Positions 29,310 through 33,857 of a stretch of 64,000 nt of DNA are shown one piece after another. The stretch is from positions 1,568,001 through 1,632,000 of the forward strand of contig OZ241865.1 in NCBI GenBank assembly GCA_965203275.1, written 5' to 3'. Numbering within the stretch: position 1 is the first letter of the stretch; every line of letters begins with the position of its first letter. Position numbers and translations under genes: made by a program. The notes under the pieces were generated by a model. It had not been told where the DNA came from. It made no database searches and was given only the letters and a program-made list of their open reading frames with translations. The DNA comes from Bdellovibrionales bacterium. Its GTDB lineage: Bacteria; Bdellovibrionota; Bdellovibrionia; Bdellovibrionales; JAUICD01.

Positions 29310-29369
29310 AGGGGTCATTTAGAATCACTAAAAGTGGCTAGTTCACTTTGAGTGAATAAAGAAGGAACT

Positions 29370-29517
29370 TTTTCCTTAACATTATGTAAAAGAATAAAAG
29401 GATCCTTCTCTACTCAAAATAAATGAATTTTCTAGGCAGTTAGCCTTTGATCGACGGCGGTAGCCGTCGGGCTAACTGCCAGAAAACATGCCAGAGGCAT
29501 GATTTATTTTGAGTGAA
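29370..29517 (+). repeat. Complete structured element copy
   Basis: P1 ACTCAAAATAAAT/ATTTATTTTGAGT, P2 GGCAGTTAGC/GCTAACTGCC, apical CGACGGC-GGTA-GCCGTCG, P3 CATGCC-AGA-GGCATG. Confidence 0.9.
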
Positions 29518-29647
29518 ACAAGTTAGGTGAAGTTGAGAATCTTAAGCATCTACAGAGATACAAATAAGCCTAACTAAAAGGTAAAGAAGGATGGTAAAAG
29601 ATGCTATCCAAATTTTAATTAATTTTAATAAATAGAGGAGTTTTAAA

Positions 29648-30423: not shown

Positions 30424-30942
30424 TTGGAGAGTGAGATCATGTTTCAAAAAATAAGAAAGGCCATTAAATATCTATCAAGACCACGACAATTTATGTATTT
30501 ATATGCTTTATTGGCAGTGTTCTGGCTACATGCCTTTTATTTAATCTATGAAGATAATTATCTAAAAGCTAAATTTAAGTCTGATCAAGAGATAGCAAAT
30601 CAGGAATTATCTCTTAATAAAACAATGCAAATCGATATTAACACTGCACGTAAAGCTTATGATGGCATCTTTGATCCGGACGAGGCTATCAGAGATAAGA
30701 AAATAGATACTTTAGAGAGGTTTCTTAATATATGCGATAGTGCCTCTTGTCGAGTGATCAGTGGGTTAGAGCCGACACGTGATGTTTGCAATAATGAGCT
30801 GTCAACATCCCGGAATTTTCATAAGTATAGGGTGTATTCGTGTAAATTAAAGATCACAGTAGAGAACAACGAGCCTATGGATTGTACGAGGGTAATTTGG
30901 AGTTCGGTAAAGGGACTTTGTGAAAGATTAAATGATACATAA
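30424..30942 (+). CDS. Hypothetical membrane-anchored Cys-containing protein (possible pilin accessory)
   Basis: One N-terminal TM helix and 6 Cys; directly after pilA. Start probably at the ATG a few codons in. Confidence 0.65.
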   Translation: MESEIMFQKIRKAIKYLSRPRQFMYLYALLAVFWLHAFYLIYEDNYLKAKFKSDQEIANQELSLNKTMQIDINTARKAYDGIFDPDEAIRDKKIDTLERFLNICDSASCRVISGLEPTRDVCNNELSTSRNFHKYRVYSCKLKITVENNEPMDCTRVIWSSVKGLCERLNDT

Positions 30943-30983
30943 AACCTTTTTGAGAACTTAAAAGTATTTAGCGTTTTCATGGT

Positions 30984-31016
30984 AAAGAGGGCCCTCACGA
31001 CAGGCCCTCTTTTTTT
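30984..31016 (+). terminator. Intrinsic terminator
   Basis: AAAGAGGGCC-loop-GGCCCTCTTT plus T-tract. Confidence 0.88.
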
Positions 31017-31018
31017 AT

Positions 31019-31047
31019 TTGACTTTCTTAGAAATTAATCCTATACT
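31019..31047 (+). promoter_or_regulatory. Sigma70 promoter for 31095 ORF
   Basis: TTGACT-N17-TATACT. Confidence 0.75.
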
Positions 31048-31094
31048 AAAGCCAATTGATTTTAGAAATATTAATTTAACAAAGAGAGGACGTT

Positions 31095-31325
31095 ATGGAT
31101 AAGAAAAAAGAGATAAAAGGTTTTAATAAGTTTTTGAAAGATTCTGAAATAATAAGAGATCTAAAGGATGCTAAAAAAAATTTAAATGAAACTTTTAAGA
31201 AAGAGTCTAAATTAATTAAGAGTTATAAAAATAAAAGAGCAGACTCCCTAGCTCTTTTTTTAAAAAAAGAGTTTATAGCTTTTATAAAAAAAGTTGAGAA
31301 TAAAATAAAAAAATTAAAGAAATAA
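31095..31325 (+). CDS. Small Lys-rich helical hypothetical protein (76 aa)
   Basis: GAGAGGA RBS and own promoter; no family recognised. Confidence 0.65.
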   Translation: MDKKKEIKGFNKFLKDSEIIRDLKDAKKNLNETFKKESKLIKSYKNKRADSLALFLKKEFIAFIKKVENKIKKLKK

Positions 31326-31410
31326 ATATGAAAAGTCCTTATGGTCATCCTGACTGGAAACGAGAAAATAGAGGGAAATAAGAAGTCTAAATTAATCTAA
31401 TTCTAAATAA

Positions 31411-31439
31411 TTGAGTTTATCCAAAGAGGATGAGATACT
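31411..31439 (+). promoter_or_regulatory. Sigma70 promoter for crRNA-like unit 1
   Basis: TTGAGT-N17-GATACT with extended TG at 31431-31432; +1 predicted at 31446. Confidence 0.65.
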
Positions 31440-31445
31440 ATAATT

Positions 31446-31517
31446 AATTTCTACTGTTGTAGATTAGATAATGGTAAGCTATAAAAAGAGGCCTTTCCTT
31501 GGTGGCCTCTTTTTTTT
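31446..31517 (+). CRISPR. Solitary type V-A (Cas12a) crRNA-like unit 1: handle + 18-23-nt guide + terminator
   Basis: AATTTCTACTGTTGTAGAT (31446-31464), guide TAGATAATGGTAAGCTAT(AAAAA), then terminator. Confidence 0.8.
31483..31517 (+). terminator. Intrinsic terminator closing crRNA-like unit 1
   Basis: AAAAAGAGGCC-N10-GGCCTCTTTTTTTT. Confidence 0.88.
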
Positions 31518-31593
31518 AATAAATTAAGGAAAAAGTGCAATATTTAAGCCTTCCGTCGCTTATATATCTTTTAAAAAACCTCTTTTTAAAGGT

Positions 31594-31833
31594 CTATTTA
31601 AAAGTCATAAGTCCATGGCTATCTTGATCATTAATATTCTCATATTCTATTAACTTTTTTATAGTGTTAATATGGCCTCTCTCACAAGCATACATTAAGG
31701 CTGTCTTTTTCTTATCTTTACCTTCTATTGAATCCATTAAACTAGTCGCATCATTAAGTACTTGAAACATGGTTAATATATCCATTTGTTTGATTAAAAA
31801 ATTCATTTTACTGAAAATGTGGTGTTTGGTCAA
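31594..31833 (-). pseudogene. Ankyrin-repeat gene fragment
   Basis: Single repeat KTALMYACERGHINTIKKLIEY, then an early stop. Confidence 0.55.
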
Positions 31834-31862
31834 GGGATGATGCGGCCTGTTAAAAGTTTTTA

Positions 31863-31891
31863 TTGTTTTTTTTTTAAAAAAAAGCTATACT
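31863..31891 (+). promoter_or_regulatory. Sigma70 promoter for the TM/coiled-coil ORF
   Basis: TTGTTT-N17-TATACT. Confidence 0.55.
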
Positions 31892-31916
31892 AATACTTAT
31901 GAAAACGGAGGTTATT

Positions 31917-32228
31917 ATGGACATATCAGTAGATATTAAGTTGATAAAGGATTTTTTTATAAAACATCCTATATTTTCCGTTATTATATTCATTATTGTA
32001 GTGATGATATGGTTTTGTTCTTGGTCTTTGTATCGACAGCTATCTAATCATTTACCTACACAGATCACAGAGATTAAGGACGATATGAAAGAATTGAAAG
32101 AAGATATGAAAGATGGGTTTACAGAAGTTAATAGAGATATAAGAGAAGTTAATAGAGATATGAAAGATGGGTTTACAGAAGTTAATAGAGATATTAAACG
32201 TCTTCTTGAAAAGTCTAATCAAGAATGA
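31917..32228 (+). CDS. Small single-TM plus coiled-coil protein with internal repeats
   Basis: GGAGG-TTATT-ATG at 31917; TM IFSVIIFIIVVMIWFCSWSL; repeats MKDGFTEVNRD. Confidence 0.75.
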   Translation: MDISVDIKLIKDFFIKHPIFSVIIFIIVVMIWFCSWSLYRQLSNHLPTQITEIKDDMKELKEDMKDGFTEVNRDIREVNRDMKDGFTEVNRDIKRLLEKSNQE

Positions 32229-32234
32229 TATACT
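32206..32234 (+). promoter_or_regulatory. Sigma70 promoter for crRNA-like unit 2
   Basis: TTGAAA-N17-TATACT with extended TG at 32226-32227; +1 predicted at 32241. Confidence 0.75.
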
Positions 32235-32240
32235 ATAATT

Positions 32241-32331
32241 AATTTCTACTGTTGTAGATAAACTTTACTGTTAATCCTAGTATATTGTATTTAAAGCTAT
32301 AGGAGTTAAACTACCAACAAAGCCCTATAGC
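32241..32331 (+). CRISPR. Solitary type V-A (Cas12a) crRNA-like unit 2: handle + guide + hairpin
   Basis: AATTTCTACTGTTGTAGAT (32241-32259), guide AAACTTTACTGTTAATCCTAGTA..., hairpin GCTATAGG/CCTATAGC (32296-32331). Confidence 0.8.
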
Positions 32332-32400
32332 AAAAATGTCAATTTATATAAAAGAGTTTCTTTATTGCACAAACCGCTTGCTCCTAAGGTAATAAAAACA

Positions 32401-32880
32401 CTTTTTCCTTAACATGCTACAGAGGAATGAAGAGATCCTCCCTACTCAAAGTGAACAGGCTTTCTAGGCGATGACCATTTTATCGACGTGAAGTAAACAT
32501 CTTGTTTCCTTAACATGGTGTTAAGAAAAGAGGAGATCCTCCTTACTAAAAATAAACGGATTTTTGAGGCAATCAGCCTTTGATCGACGGCGATAAGCCG
32601 TCGGGCTAACTGCCATTAGAAGGATATTTTCCTTAACATGGTGTTAAGAAACGAAGATATCCTCCCCTACTCAAAATGCATAATTTTTTGAGGCAATGAC
32701 CATTTTGCCAATGGTGAAAGCCATTGCGGTCATTGCCCAAAAACATGCCAGAGGCATGATGCATTTTGAGTGAAAAAGACAGCTAGTTCAATTTTAGGGA
32801 AACAGAGGCTGGTTTATTTTTAGTGAGACAAACGTGGTCATCGCCAGAAAGTGACCAGAGGTCAGTTCACTTTGAGTGAA
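32401..32880 (+). mobile_element. Three nested structured elements
   Basis: Outer copy split into 32401-32488 and 32836-32880; middle copy into 32505-32614 and ~32802-32826; intact inner copy at 32627-32774. Confidence 0.8.
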
Positions 32881-32993
32881 ACAACATAGATTGTCCAAAA
32901 TTCTGCCACAAAACAAAAAACCTAGTGGCACAAAATCTCTTTCGACTCATAACCTACTGCTCAACTTTATTTTTGCAGGCTATCAAACTCAGG

Positions 32994-33857
32994 TTAATAT
33001 CTTGGAGTGAAAAGCGTCAAAGGCTCTCCTAGTGGCTTAAATAAAACTTCATCACCAGAGAGAAAAAATGGACCTTCATCTTTTTCTATACGGCTTTGTA
33101 TGGATTTGAGATTGTCTTCATCTTTAGGATGTAATAAAAATTGTGTTTTTTGATAACGTAAGTCAAAAGATTCGTTGTGTTCTTGTTTATCAAAGAATCT
33201 CCTCCATGCCACGTGATCAATTAAGCATTTGTAAGTGACAGAATGAGAGTGATCATGTGAAGCATTATATGTAGCAATTAATTCAAAATCTCCAAAATTA
33301 GTATGAAGTTTAAGGGCGTTAGAATGCCATTGAGTAACTCCATAAAGTGATTGAATATTAGCATACCATAAACCAAAAGCCTTACTTAAAAATCCAAGAC
33401 CTTTAAAACGTTTATCCGAAGGTAAAAGACCATTGAGTGAGCAAAGATTATGGGCAACCCATTGCCCTGTATCCATAGATGGAATGACAATAAAAAGAGA
33501 TAAAGGAACCCATTTTTCATGGGAGTGTTCATTTTTATAGAGATTGTGGATTTCTTTAGGCAATTTGTCTCTTTTCATTACAAATCCAGTGATTATTCCT
33601 GGCATAATTCCACAATCATAAAAAGCCCATCGAGGCGTAGAAAGCCTTCCAAACATAATAGAATCTACTTTCATTTGCAACTCTATAAAACCTGCATTTT
33701 TTAAAAGCAAAGGATTGATCACCTTAGGCTTGCGATGAAACCAATCAAAACTTTGCTGTGAAAAATTGCCTTCAATGCTTTTATGGTTTTCCGGTCGGAT
33801 GCAAATATAAGGTAAAATATCAGGATGATCTAGCCAATCAGGCTTTAGTGTATTCAT
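32994..33857 (-). CDS. Hypothetical protein
   Basis: 287-aa ORF with AAGGAG RBS; motif PRWAFYDCGIMPG; FKGLGFLSKAFGL is weakly GNAT-like. Confidence 0.75.
   Translation of the reverse strand: MNTLKPDWLDHPDILPYICIRPENHKSIEGNFSQQSFDWFHRKPKVINPLLLKNAGFIELQMKVDSIMFGRLSTPRWAFYDCGIMPGIITGFVMKRDKLPKEIHNLYKNEHSHEKWVPLSLFIVIPSMDTGQWVAHNLCSLNGLLPSDKRFKGLGFLSKAFGLWYANIQSLYGVTQWHSNALKLHTNFGDFELIATYNASHDHSHSVTYKCLIDHVAWRRFFDKQEHNESFDLRYQKTQFLLHPKDEDNLKSIQSRIEKDEGPFFLSGDEVLFKPLGEPLTLFTPRY

Follow-up and report, generated by a model that had tools for sequence, protein, structure and literature searches.

A dispersed chromosomal family of Cas12a-type crRNA-like units with promoter-like sequences in a Bdellovibrionales genome encoding a Cas12a3 homologue

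Introduction

Solitary repeat units derived from CRISPR repeats and located just 3' of promoters are known on viruses, and three of type V-A (RacrVA1-3) are reported to inhibit a Cas12a system (Camara-Wilpert et al. 2023, PMC10651486). One of these three was cloned as a construct ending at the 3' end of the repeat (PMC10651486, supplement file 1, row 215), so a decoy of this type needs no guide. Here we analyse two CRISPR RNA (crRNA)-like units, unit 1 and unit 2, in a 64,000-nt stretch of a Bdellovibrionales genome (the window, G000:C1:1568001-1632000), together with the dispersed family to which they belong; the genome, G000, comprises 2.57 Mb with 35% G+C on a single contig.

Besides the viral units, V-A stand-alone repeats beside cas12a and regulators of the CreR type have been described (PMC10120712; 10.1101/2023.03.10.532045; 10.1101/2024.10.29.618823), and in type I-F a protein toxin is reported to be repressed by a crRNA-like RNA (bioRxiv 10.1101/2024.01.05.574328). 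Cas12a3 is reported to use Cas12a-like crRNAs and to recognise RNA with a purine-rich flank, to cut tRNA 3' tails and arrest growth once triggered, and to have kept the crRNA-processing residues in its clades (PMC12851939). In a literature search that mostly did not extend to subscription journals, we found no dispersed chromosomal family of self-promoted Cas12a-type units, and none tied to Cas12a3.

Results

Anatomy of the two units in the window

The 19-mer AATTTCTACTGTTGTAGAT occurs in exactly two copies in the window, at 31446-31464 and 32241-32259, both on the + strand, with a chance expectation of 0.07 and with two or more copies in none of 100 shuffles. It equals the 3' 19 nt of the 36-nt repeat of the genome's own V-A array, i.e., the crRNA handle, which we take to be of the 'Francisella type', and the 5' half of that repeat (ATTGAAAGGGACTTATA) is absent from the units. 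The repeat shared by units 1 and 2 extends over 38 nt (31427-31464 and 32222-32259, family D5) with 95% identity at a distance of 795 nt. In both units a -35-like hexamer is followed by 17 nt, a -10-like hexamer with TG one base 5' of it, exactly 6 nt, and the handle. A preliminary description of the window had claimed two handle copies with promoter-like boxes, the 6-nt spacing, 3' hairpins and the lack of the 5' half of the array repeat; sequence, match counts and folds agree with the former claims, and comparison with the genome's own repeat bears out the last.

Unit 1 (+ strand) begins with the -35-like hexamer TTGAGT (31411-31416), 17 nt from the -10 box and just 5' of the block TTATCCAAAGAGGATGATATA, which comprises the spacer and the start of the -10 box. 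The TG-extended -10 element TGAGATACT (31431-31439; TG 31431-31432, GATACT 31434-31439) agrees with the consensus at four of six positions, with A2, T6 and the TG present, and ends 6 nt (ATAATT) from the first A of the handle. The handle (31446-31464) is an exact match and folds into a hairpin; it is followed by the guide-like segment TAGATAATGGTAAGCTATAAAA (31465-31486) and by an intrinsic-terminator-like hairpin with a G+C-rich stem core, a 10-nt loop and eight T (31487-31517). In the predicted fold (z = -3.2), the handle hairpin, some 18-22 unpaired nt and an 11-bp hairpin (31483-31514) precede or overlap the T8 run (31510-31517).

Unit 2 (+ strand) is interlocked with a preceding ORF (open reading frame) of 109 aa. 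Its -35-like hexamer TTGAAA (32206-32211) lies inside the 3' end of this ORF and derives from its last codons, and the alignment reveals a 32-nt deletion that took out the canonical -35 block of the family, leaving TTGAAA 17 nt from the -10 box. The TG-extended -10 element TGATATACT (32226-32234; TG 32226-32227, TATACT 32229-32234) contains a TGA that doubles as the stop codon of the ORF. The handle (32241-32259) is again an exact match forming a hairpin, followed by a guide-like segment of about 36 nt that begins with AAACTTTACTGTTAATCCTAGTA (32260-32295, 3' boundary undefined) and by a hairpin without T-run (32296-32331), for which the scan made no terminator call (fold z = -2.1).

A promoter scan called unit 2 (10/12 matches, TG present) and left unit 1 uncalled (8/12), and it returned four promoter-like sites in this A+T-rich region vs. 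9.1 in shuffles; support for the promoters therefore comes from conservation across copies and not from the scan. An Rfam search of window positions 30500-33500 gave no noteworthy family at E <= 1. None of 16 runs checked for expression is on record as RNA. The unit 1 region is identical in sequence across contigs of three studies. One divergent contig is unchanged over the 82 nt comprising the 3' end of the promoter region, the handle, the guide and the terminator; over the following 257 nt it shows five substitutions and an insertion of 6 nt, counts that are too few for a test.

A family of 16 units dispersed over the genome

Searching G000 for the handle with up to three mismatches yielded 26 matches, and the reversed-pattern control gave none. 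Fifteen of the matches are clear solitary units and six belong to the array; the rest are two possible divergent units and three chance-like matches. One more unit, with a 5-nt loop, brings the family to 16 clear units (plus the two possible ones), spanning 0.26 to 2.43 Mb. Alignment of the 16 revealed a shared plan of -35, spacer, TG-extended -10, 6 nt, handle and 17-30 variable nt, and none of them carries the 5' half of the array repeat. Ten units, including unit 1, form a short class with a G+C-rich hairpin and T-run 3' of the guide, the terminator-like hairpins being homologous to that of unit 1; the long class, which includes unit 2, has no immediate terminator.

A -10 box 5-8 nt 5' of the handle is present in 11 of the 16 units vs. 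13% of random positions, and the full combination of -10, TG and a -35 at 16-18 nt in six, both window units among them, vs. 0.08% of 20,000 random positions and none of the six array repeats. The copies are paralogues, hence these counts are not independent. The geometry is nevertheless kept in otherwise differing upstream sequences, such as TTGAGT...TATACT, TTGACA...TATTCT and the TTGAAA of unit 2.

The handles of the 16 units differ by 16 substitutions and one loop insertion. Of the substitutions, nine affect the loop and three the 5' tail; the other four are C>U changes at a single stem position that keep a G.U pair, so that the 5-bp stem is unbroken in all units. Among eight non-redundant short-class units, mean pairwise identity is highest in the handle (0.87), followed by the terminator (0.67), the promoter block (0.55), the guide (0.50) and the flanks (0.31). 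Unit 1 and its relative u1546813 share 28/29 promoter positions, 6/6 of the spacer and 18/19 of the handle, and their homologous guides have diverged to 10/22. Across the family there are 14 distinct guides. Short-class guides are homologous to one another (AAATTCATRATTG...), have for the most part about 25% G+C like intergenic DNA, and are poorer in G+C than the array spacers (by eye, not computed), which indicates that they arose by duplication and drift and not by spacer capture.

Three long-class units (G000:C1:960087-960180, 1168399-1168500 and 2428110-2428230) have a second, degenerate copy of the promoter block on their 3' side, in which the handle stem-loop is apparently deleted (…AAAGTTTC|CATGATTCCATAT…) and which is joined to the common short-class guide and terminator. 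Unit and degenerate copy together resemble a decayed two-unit mini-array. An antisense small ORF starting at an ATG in the reverse complement of several guides was considered and dropped, as its frames are not conserved between units (by eye).

The cas locus and effectors of the genome

G000 carries a V-A-type cas locus at 232-246 kb, 1.35 Mb from the window units and 19 kb to >1 Mb from the units of the family, the nearest of which lies about 19 kb from the array. Searches of the genome for cas12a, V-A arrays and more handle copies thus found all three, and the earlier statement that no cas gene or array is nearby holds for the window but not for the genome. The Cas12a ORF of this locus (982 aa) matches the model only at positions 327-1287, i.e., about 326 N-terminal residues are missing, and with only ~500 bp of non-coding DNA 5' of the ORF the N-terminal third must be regarded as lost. 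A divergently oriented ORF of 1325 aa without stops is a Cas12a3 homologue. It is named by no Pfam or NCBIfam model, but phmmer matches it to the solved Cas12a3 structures (PDB 21we, E = 1e-71; 9hlx, 2e-58), and in an alignment with the solved proteins its acidic residues of RuvC I and RuvC II match, as does a zinc-ribbon CxxC. As judged from its sequence, Cas12a3 is the only intact effector of the genome that fits the handle. The preliminary description had placed the partner of the units in a Cas12a encoded elsewhere; a handle-compatible effector is encoded, yet the Cas12a is N-terminally truncated and the intact protein is the Cas12a3 homologue.

Cas1 is truncated as well (it matches only positions 103-316 of 317), Cas2 is present, and no Cas4 ORF was seen in the locus. 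The array comprises six full repeats and one truncated repeat with six spacers, and the handle forms the 3' 19 nt of each repeat. The last repeat (G000:C1:~245680) is truncated much like the congener's repeats that are split by a ~145-nt repeat (see below). A second CRISPR array with a different repeat (GTTTCAGTAGGAAGGGTTTTGAC...) and a nearby Cas4-like ORF were noted outside the window at G000:C1:~2266500-2266640 and 2268955-2269557. One spacer of this array shares 26/28 nt with spacer 1 of the V-A array, so that the two systems hold memory of the same invader; an apparent self-target of V-A spacer 1 was rejected because the match is this spacer.

Related genomes

Among 40 related genomes the handle is numerous only in a congener (G001) and in a member of another family (G011), in both of them in ordinary arrays. 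The congener encodes a full-length Cas12a, a Cas12a3 that is 58% identical to that of G000, and an array of 59 repeats; neither a dispersed unit nor a copy of the promoter block was detected in it. The block TTATCCAAAGAGGATGATATA has seven copies at <=1 mismatch in G000 and none in G001 or G011. The two congeners are too divergent and rearranged for synteny to define an insertion, and window positions 29.6-32.4 kb have no DNA match in G001. The single handle outside the congener's array is part of the array end, which is split by the lineage's abundant ~145-nt structured repeat inserted into CRISPR repeats. This repeat inserts just after ...TTAATTTC (L108, G001:C1:2606900-2609400, 270-1050), which isolates the handle.

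Searches for targets of the guides

A search of G000 on either strand, allowing <=3 mismatches over 20 nt and <=1 over 14 nt, returned only self-matches and matches at chance level. In the ±1.5 kb around each unit, none of the 16 guides matched better than in random regions (lowest null fraction 0.087). In the non-coding DNA of the cas locus, none of 42 tests survived multiple-testing correction and the window guides were unmatched. The best partial match (13/16, null fraction 0.007) places one guide in the cas12a/cas12a3 intergenic region; a score of 13/16 was also reached by three related guides at one site of the array leader region (null fractions 0.013-0.067), all with seed mismatches and without a TTV motif. 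The 40 relatives contain no match for guide 1 and a single 2-mismatch match for guide 2. Exact 20-mers of either window guide are missing from the viral contigs, but two array spacers used as a yardstick were unmatched there as well, so this search is uninformative for the organism. A metagenome collection searched with the pattern of -10 box plus handle gave no match to the units of the organism. Accordingly, the proposed search for guide targets in the host genome and in viral contigs, which had been framed in terms of protospacer adjacent motifs, came up empty; as the intact effector Cas12a3 is RNA-targeting, looking for DNA targets flanked by such motifs was probably the wrong search.

Similar units in other genomes and viruses

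The scan pattern '-10 box, 5-8 nt, handle' retrieved 29 loci in representative genomes and two in viral contigs. Several of these loci are arrays in which TATAAT by chance forms part of the repeat. Units standing alone, with consensus promoter, short segment and terminator, were found in a Clostridia metagenome-assembled genome (MAG), in three Treponema MAGs, in a Ruminococcoides isolate and in the viral contig L083. L083 is laid out like unit 1 (TTGACA, 16 nt, TATAAT, 6 nt, handle, 22 nt, terminator). In the Treponema MAGs (L073, L077 and L078) the -10 box lies 6 nt 5' of the handle, followed by ~10 nt and a conserved terminator hairpin, with short segment and hairpin nearly identical across the three.

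A different organisation is found on a Gammaproteobacteria MAG chromosome (G041, L084-L101), with 29 dispersed handles and no large array. These are mostly full 36-nt repeats, some of which occur with a common leader-like block or as two-repeat mini-arrays, and two of them lie ~25 nt upstream of tRNA genes (L096 and L099). The chromosome gave no Cas12a or Cas12a3 match.

Upstream ORFs and genomic neighbourhoods

Eleven of the 16 units start 12-124 nt 3' of the stop codon of a small coiled-coil ORF. These ORFs belong to a lineage-specific family of about 99 members, many with a hydrophobic N-terminal stretch (by eye), as defined by phmmer at E < 1e-4 with the unit-adjacent ORFs as queries, a count that the coiled-coil composition may inflate. 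Of the 99 ORFs, 86 have no unit, two nine-gene tandem clusters among them. The 109-aa ORF 5' of unit 2 (31899-32228, + strand) encodes a protein that has a hydrophobic stretch at its N-terminus and ends in a repetitive coiled-coil tail, the last codons overlapping the unit 2 promoter; it has 33 paralogous ORFs in G000 and only three database relatives. No Pfam or PHROG family was assigned above cut-off to the small ORFs flanking the units, which gave only sub-threshold coiled-coil noise, and the Atlas scores of these ORFs stay below 0.9, with holin-like clusters (0.77) as leads only.

Upstream of unit 1 only a remnant of such a gene is left (AAGAAGTCTAAATTAAT, 31380-31396, + strand), comprising its last codons. 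It aligns with the 3' end (...LLKKSG*) of the 153-aa ORF 5' of u1546813 and with the 3' end of ORF 31899-32228, and alignment with the family gene gave no homology further 5'. Unit 1 and two other units lack an intact upstream family gene and are themselves intact; that unit 1 outlived a gene decayed to ~17 nt speaks for its being maintained in its own right.

The units lie in small islets between housekeeping genes (ATP synthase, purH, metK, carboxyltransferase), and these islets contain ankyrin-repeat genes, which adjoin most units, HNH endonucleases, Mutator-family transposases and resolvase fragments. Between the two window units, a 79-aa ORF on the - strand (31594-31833) encodes a single ankyrin repeat and is probably a gene fragment. 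Clusters of the ~145-nt repeat at 29330-29520 and 32390-32900 (families D1, D3 and D4) flank the 2.9-kb segment that holds both units, and contig depth heaps up on these repeats. A possible dead unit is located at 31203-31262, inside a 76-aa ORF (31095-31325): here a copy of the 3' end of the coiled-coil gene (GAGTCTAAATTAAT) is followed by an A-rich segment and by a terminator-like hairpin with T-run (AGAGC...GCTCTTTTTTT). As neither promoter nor handle lies in between, the C-terminal part of the 76-aa ORF may be spurious.

Discussion

The units described here are in all likelihood genes in their own right, encoding crRNA-like RNAs that fit an effector of the Cas12a family, most plausibly Cas12a3. 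That stand-alone units act in trans with a 5' end set by initiation, as had been proposed from the window, gains support from the existence of 16 units, the conserved TG-extended -10 box 6 nt from the handle and the unbroken stem. We infer that transcription from a sigma-70-type promoter, its -10 box extended by TG, begins at the first A of the handle or beside it, in which case the RNA would be born with its mature 5' end. The transcript would consist of the handle, a variable segment of 17-30 nt and, in unit 1 and most of its relatives, an intrinsic terminator, and the Cas12a3 homologue would presumably bind it like a crRNA. Such mimics, presumably without a target, may compete with the six array crRNAs for Cas12a3, and this competition could damp or buffer an RNA-triggered nuclease that cuts tRNA tails and arrests growth; this is the Racr mode, but multi-copy, chromosomal and long maintained. 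Since no targets were found and the guides are A+T-rich, paralogous and not captured, occupancy is the most likely role of the RNAs. Hence our best reading, reached by exclusion and from the architecture, is that these crRNA-like RNAs are autonomous and born mature, and that they occupy Cas12a3 with no target to lead it to. We hold it tentatively, at somewhat less than an even chance. A decoy role of the Racr type had been among the initial suggestions, and exclusion together with the architecture of the viral locus L083 makes it the best fit.

Several observations weigh against decoys. The congener has 59 repeats and no units vs. six spacers and 16 units in G000, a relationship that would also fit units replacing the array. 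In all 16 units at least 17 nt separate handle and hairpin, which is near working guide length, and a decoy needs no guide; moreover, the pattern between unit 1 and u1546813 looks, on alignment, like guide turnover rather than mere neglect. There are no phage structural genes within ±2.5 kb of the units, and Racrs are defined on phages, plasmids and prophages. The absence of targets is weak evidence, and it would be puzzling for a host to keep an intact Cas12a3 plus 16 inhibitors of it.

Some of these points would fit better if the units were real Cas12a3 crRNAs, i.e., a germline repertoire of individually promoted, hard-wired guides that replaces the adaptive array. Each guide would recognise an RNA that is foreign or made only under certain conditions, and so set off the cleavage of tRNA tails and a growth arrest. 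This is the main alternative, though a rather unlikely one. A guide-length segment (17-30 nt or more) is kept in 16/16 units, the constant module is joined to variable guides like repeat and spacer, adaptation has decayed (Cas1 truncated, no Cas4 ORF seen in the locus, only six spacers), Cas12a3 is intact, and array size and unit number are inversely related in the two congeners. Against this stand the failure of every search to find a target, the mutual paralogy of the short-class guides, which speaks against independent captures, the ~25% G+C of most guides, as in intergenic DNA, in comparison with the richer array spacers, and the lack of a defined 3' end in unit 2 and other long-class units. 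In its fullest form, which we regard as unlikely, the effector has swapped its adaptive array for such a repertoire, and Cas12a3 is armed by ~16 individually promoted, born-mature guide genes; their guides would become diverse as copies duplicate and drift, with promoter and handle unchanged, providing a host-associated bacterium with innate RNA sensors that lead to tRNA-tail cleavage and growth arrest.

A third explanation turns from the RNA to the upstream ORFs: the handle may be a processing or binding site for a Cas12a-family protein in the 3' untranslated region of mRNAs for small coiled-coil or membrane proteins, and would couple mRNA stability to the availability of Cas12a3, so that, e.g., an anti-CRISPR blocking the effector would leave the mRNA stabilised and a membrane-active protein would be made. 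The position of 11 of the 16 units shortly 3' of a family ORF, with no terminator of the ORFs' own before the unit hairpin, is in line with this, as are the crRNA-processing residues reported to be kept in Cas12a3 clades (PMC12851939) and the CRISPR-repressed protein toxin reported in type I-F (bioRxiv 10.1101/2024.01.05.574328). However, most of the family, large tandem clusters included, has no unit, unit 1 and two others are intact without an intact upstream gene, a conserved promoter of their own would be needless, and nothing marks the proteins as toxic, given that they have no family assignment and only low Atlas scores; we therefore consider this explanation improbable.

Regulators of the CreR/CreA type, in which the RNAs would guide the effector to partly complementary promoter DNA of cas or neighbouring genes and repress it without cleavage, are very unlikely here. 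Such regulators are reported in V-A systems (bioRxiv 10.1101/2023.03.10.532045; PMC10120712), and the weak partial matches to non-coding DNA of the cas locus point in this direction, but these contain seed mismatches, lack a TTV motif, involve neither window guide and do not hold up once the 42 tests are corrected for. Furthermore, the units are dispersed at 19 kb to >1 Mb from a locus inside which the known regulators lie, the DNA-binding Cas12a is truncated, and the test in cis was negative for all 16 units. The CreA/CreR-like role named in the preliminary description thus finds no support in either the cis or the cas-locus test, and its proposal of mini-array weapons found no target in the genome itself, in viral contigs (a test of little power) or in the relatives.

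Finally, non-functional debris, i.e., array leftovers or pieces of repeats carried along passively by gene duplication or by mobile elements, has only a slight chance of being correct: arrays are indeed split where the ~145-nt repeat has entered CRISPR repeats (in the congener, and with the truncated last repeat in G000), and the units lie in rearranged, transposase-rich islets with a possible dead unit in the window, but the handle stem is unbroken in 16 copies while guides are at 50% and flanks at 31% identity, promoter geometry and terminators are retained, and no unit has the 5' half of the array repeat. Array leftovers split by insertions, initially named as what could overturn the reading of the units, do occur at the congener's array end but do not describe the window units.

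Known stand-alone repeat-derived RNAs come in two forms, phage anti-CRISPRs and regulators inside cas loci. A long-kept chromosomal family of ~16 members, each with its own promoter positioned to make RNA processing unnecessary, would, if true, represent a third arrangement, with no intact partner other than the tRNA-cutting Cas12a3 described recently. Should the units be decoys, RNA mimics would serve the host or resident mobile elements to throttle a suicidal nuclease; should they be guides, a CRISPR system would have become an innate, fixed sensor of RNA. In both cases the units represent compact natural designs (promoter, handle, guide and terminator in ~105 nt) for processing-free expression of Cas12a-family guides. 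The Gammaproteobacteria MAG chromosome, which has its 29 handles dispersed and on which no Cas12a-family gene was detected, hints that dispersed Cas12a-type guide units may be a wider, unrecognised organisation.

Comparison with known systems

With the mini-arrays that viruses and plasmids use in conflicts among mobile elements, mentioned in PMC10651486, the units share the principle of a guide-bearing element away from cas genes that borrows the host effector. Mini-array spacers match rival elements, and for no guide of the family was a match found. With CreR, CreA and crlRNA they have in common that degenerate repeat-derived RNA genes lie outside the array and may use the effector other than for cutting invaders. 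The known examples are reported inside or beside cas loci and carry a pseudo-spacer that can pair in part with a cas or toxin promoter, whereas the units are dispersed and the cis and cas-locus tests found no such promoter complementarity. In comparison with array crRNAs of Cas12a and Cas12a3, the identical 19-nt handle followed by ~20 nt is shared (PMC12851939), but the units have no flanking repeats, would need no 5' processing, possess their own promoter and terminator, and have guides that are paralogous and not acquired.

The closest likeness is that to the V-A Racrs. The units differ from them in having at least 16 chromosomal copies with no recognisable phage or plasmid, which are mutually diverged yet constrained and hence long kept, all of which retain a guide-length segment and most of which lie 3' of one lineage-specific small-ORF family; their intact partner is Cas12a3, not Cas12a, and inhibition would be a putative function here. 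On the other side, the solitary repeat-like sequence matches the subtype of the host's cas operon, as is required of a Racr, the host encodes the matching system, a predicted promoter lies closely 5', competition for the Cas protein is plausible (PMC10651486), and the viral contig L083 displays the same layout as unit 1.

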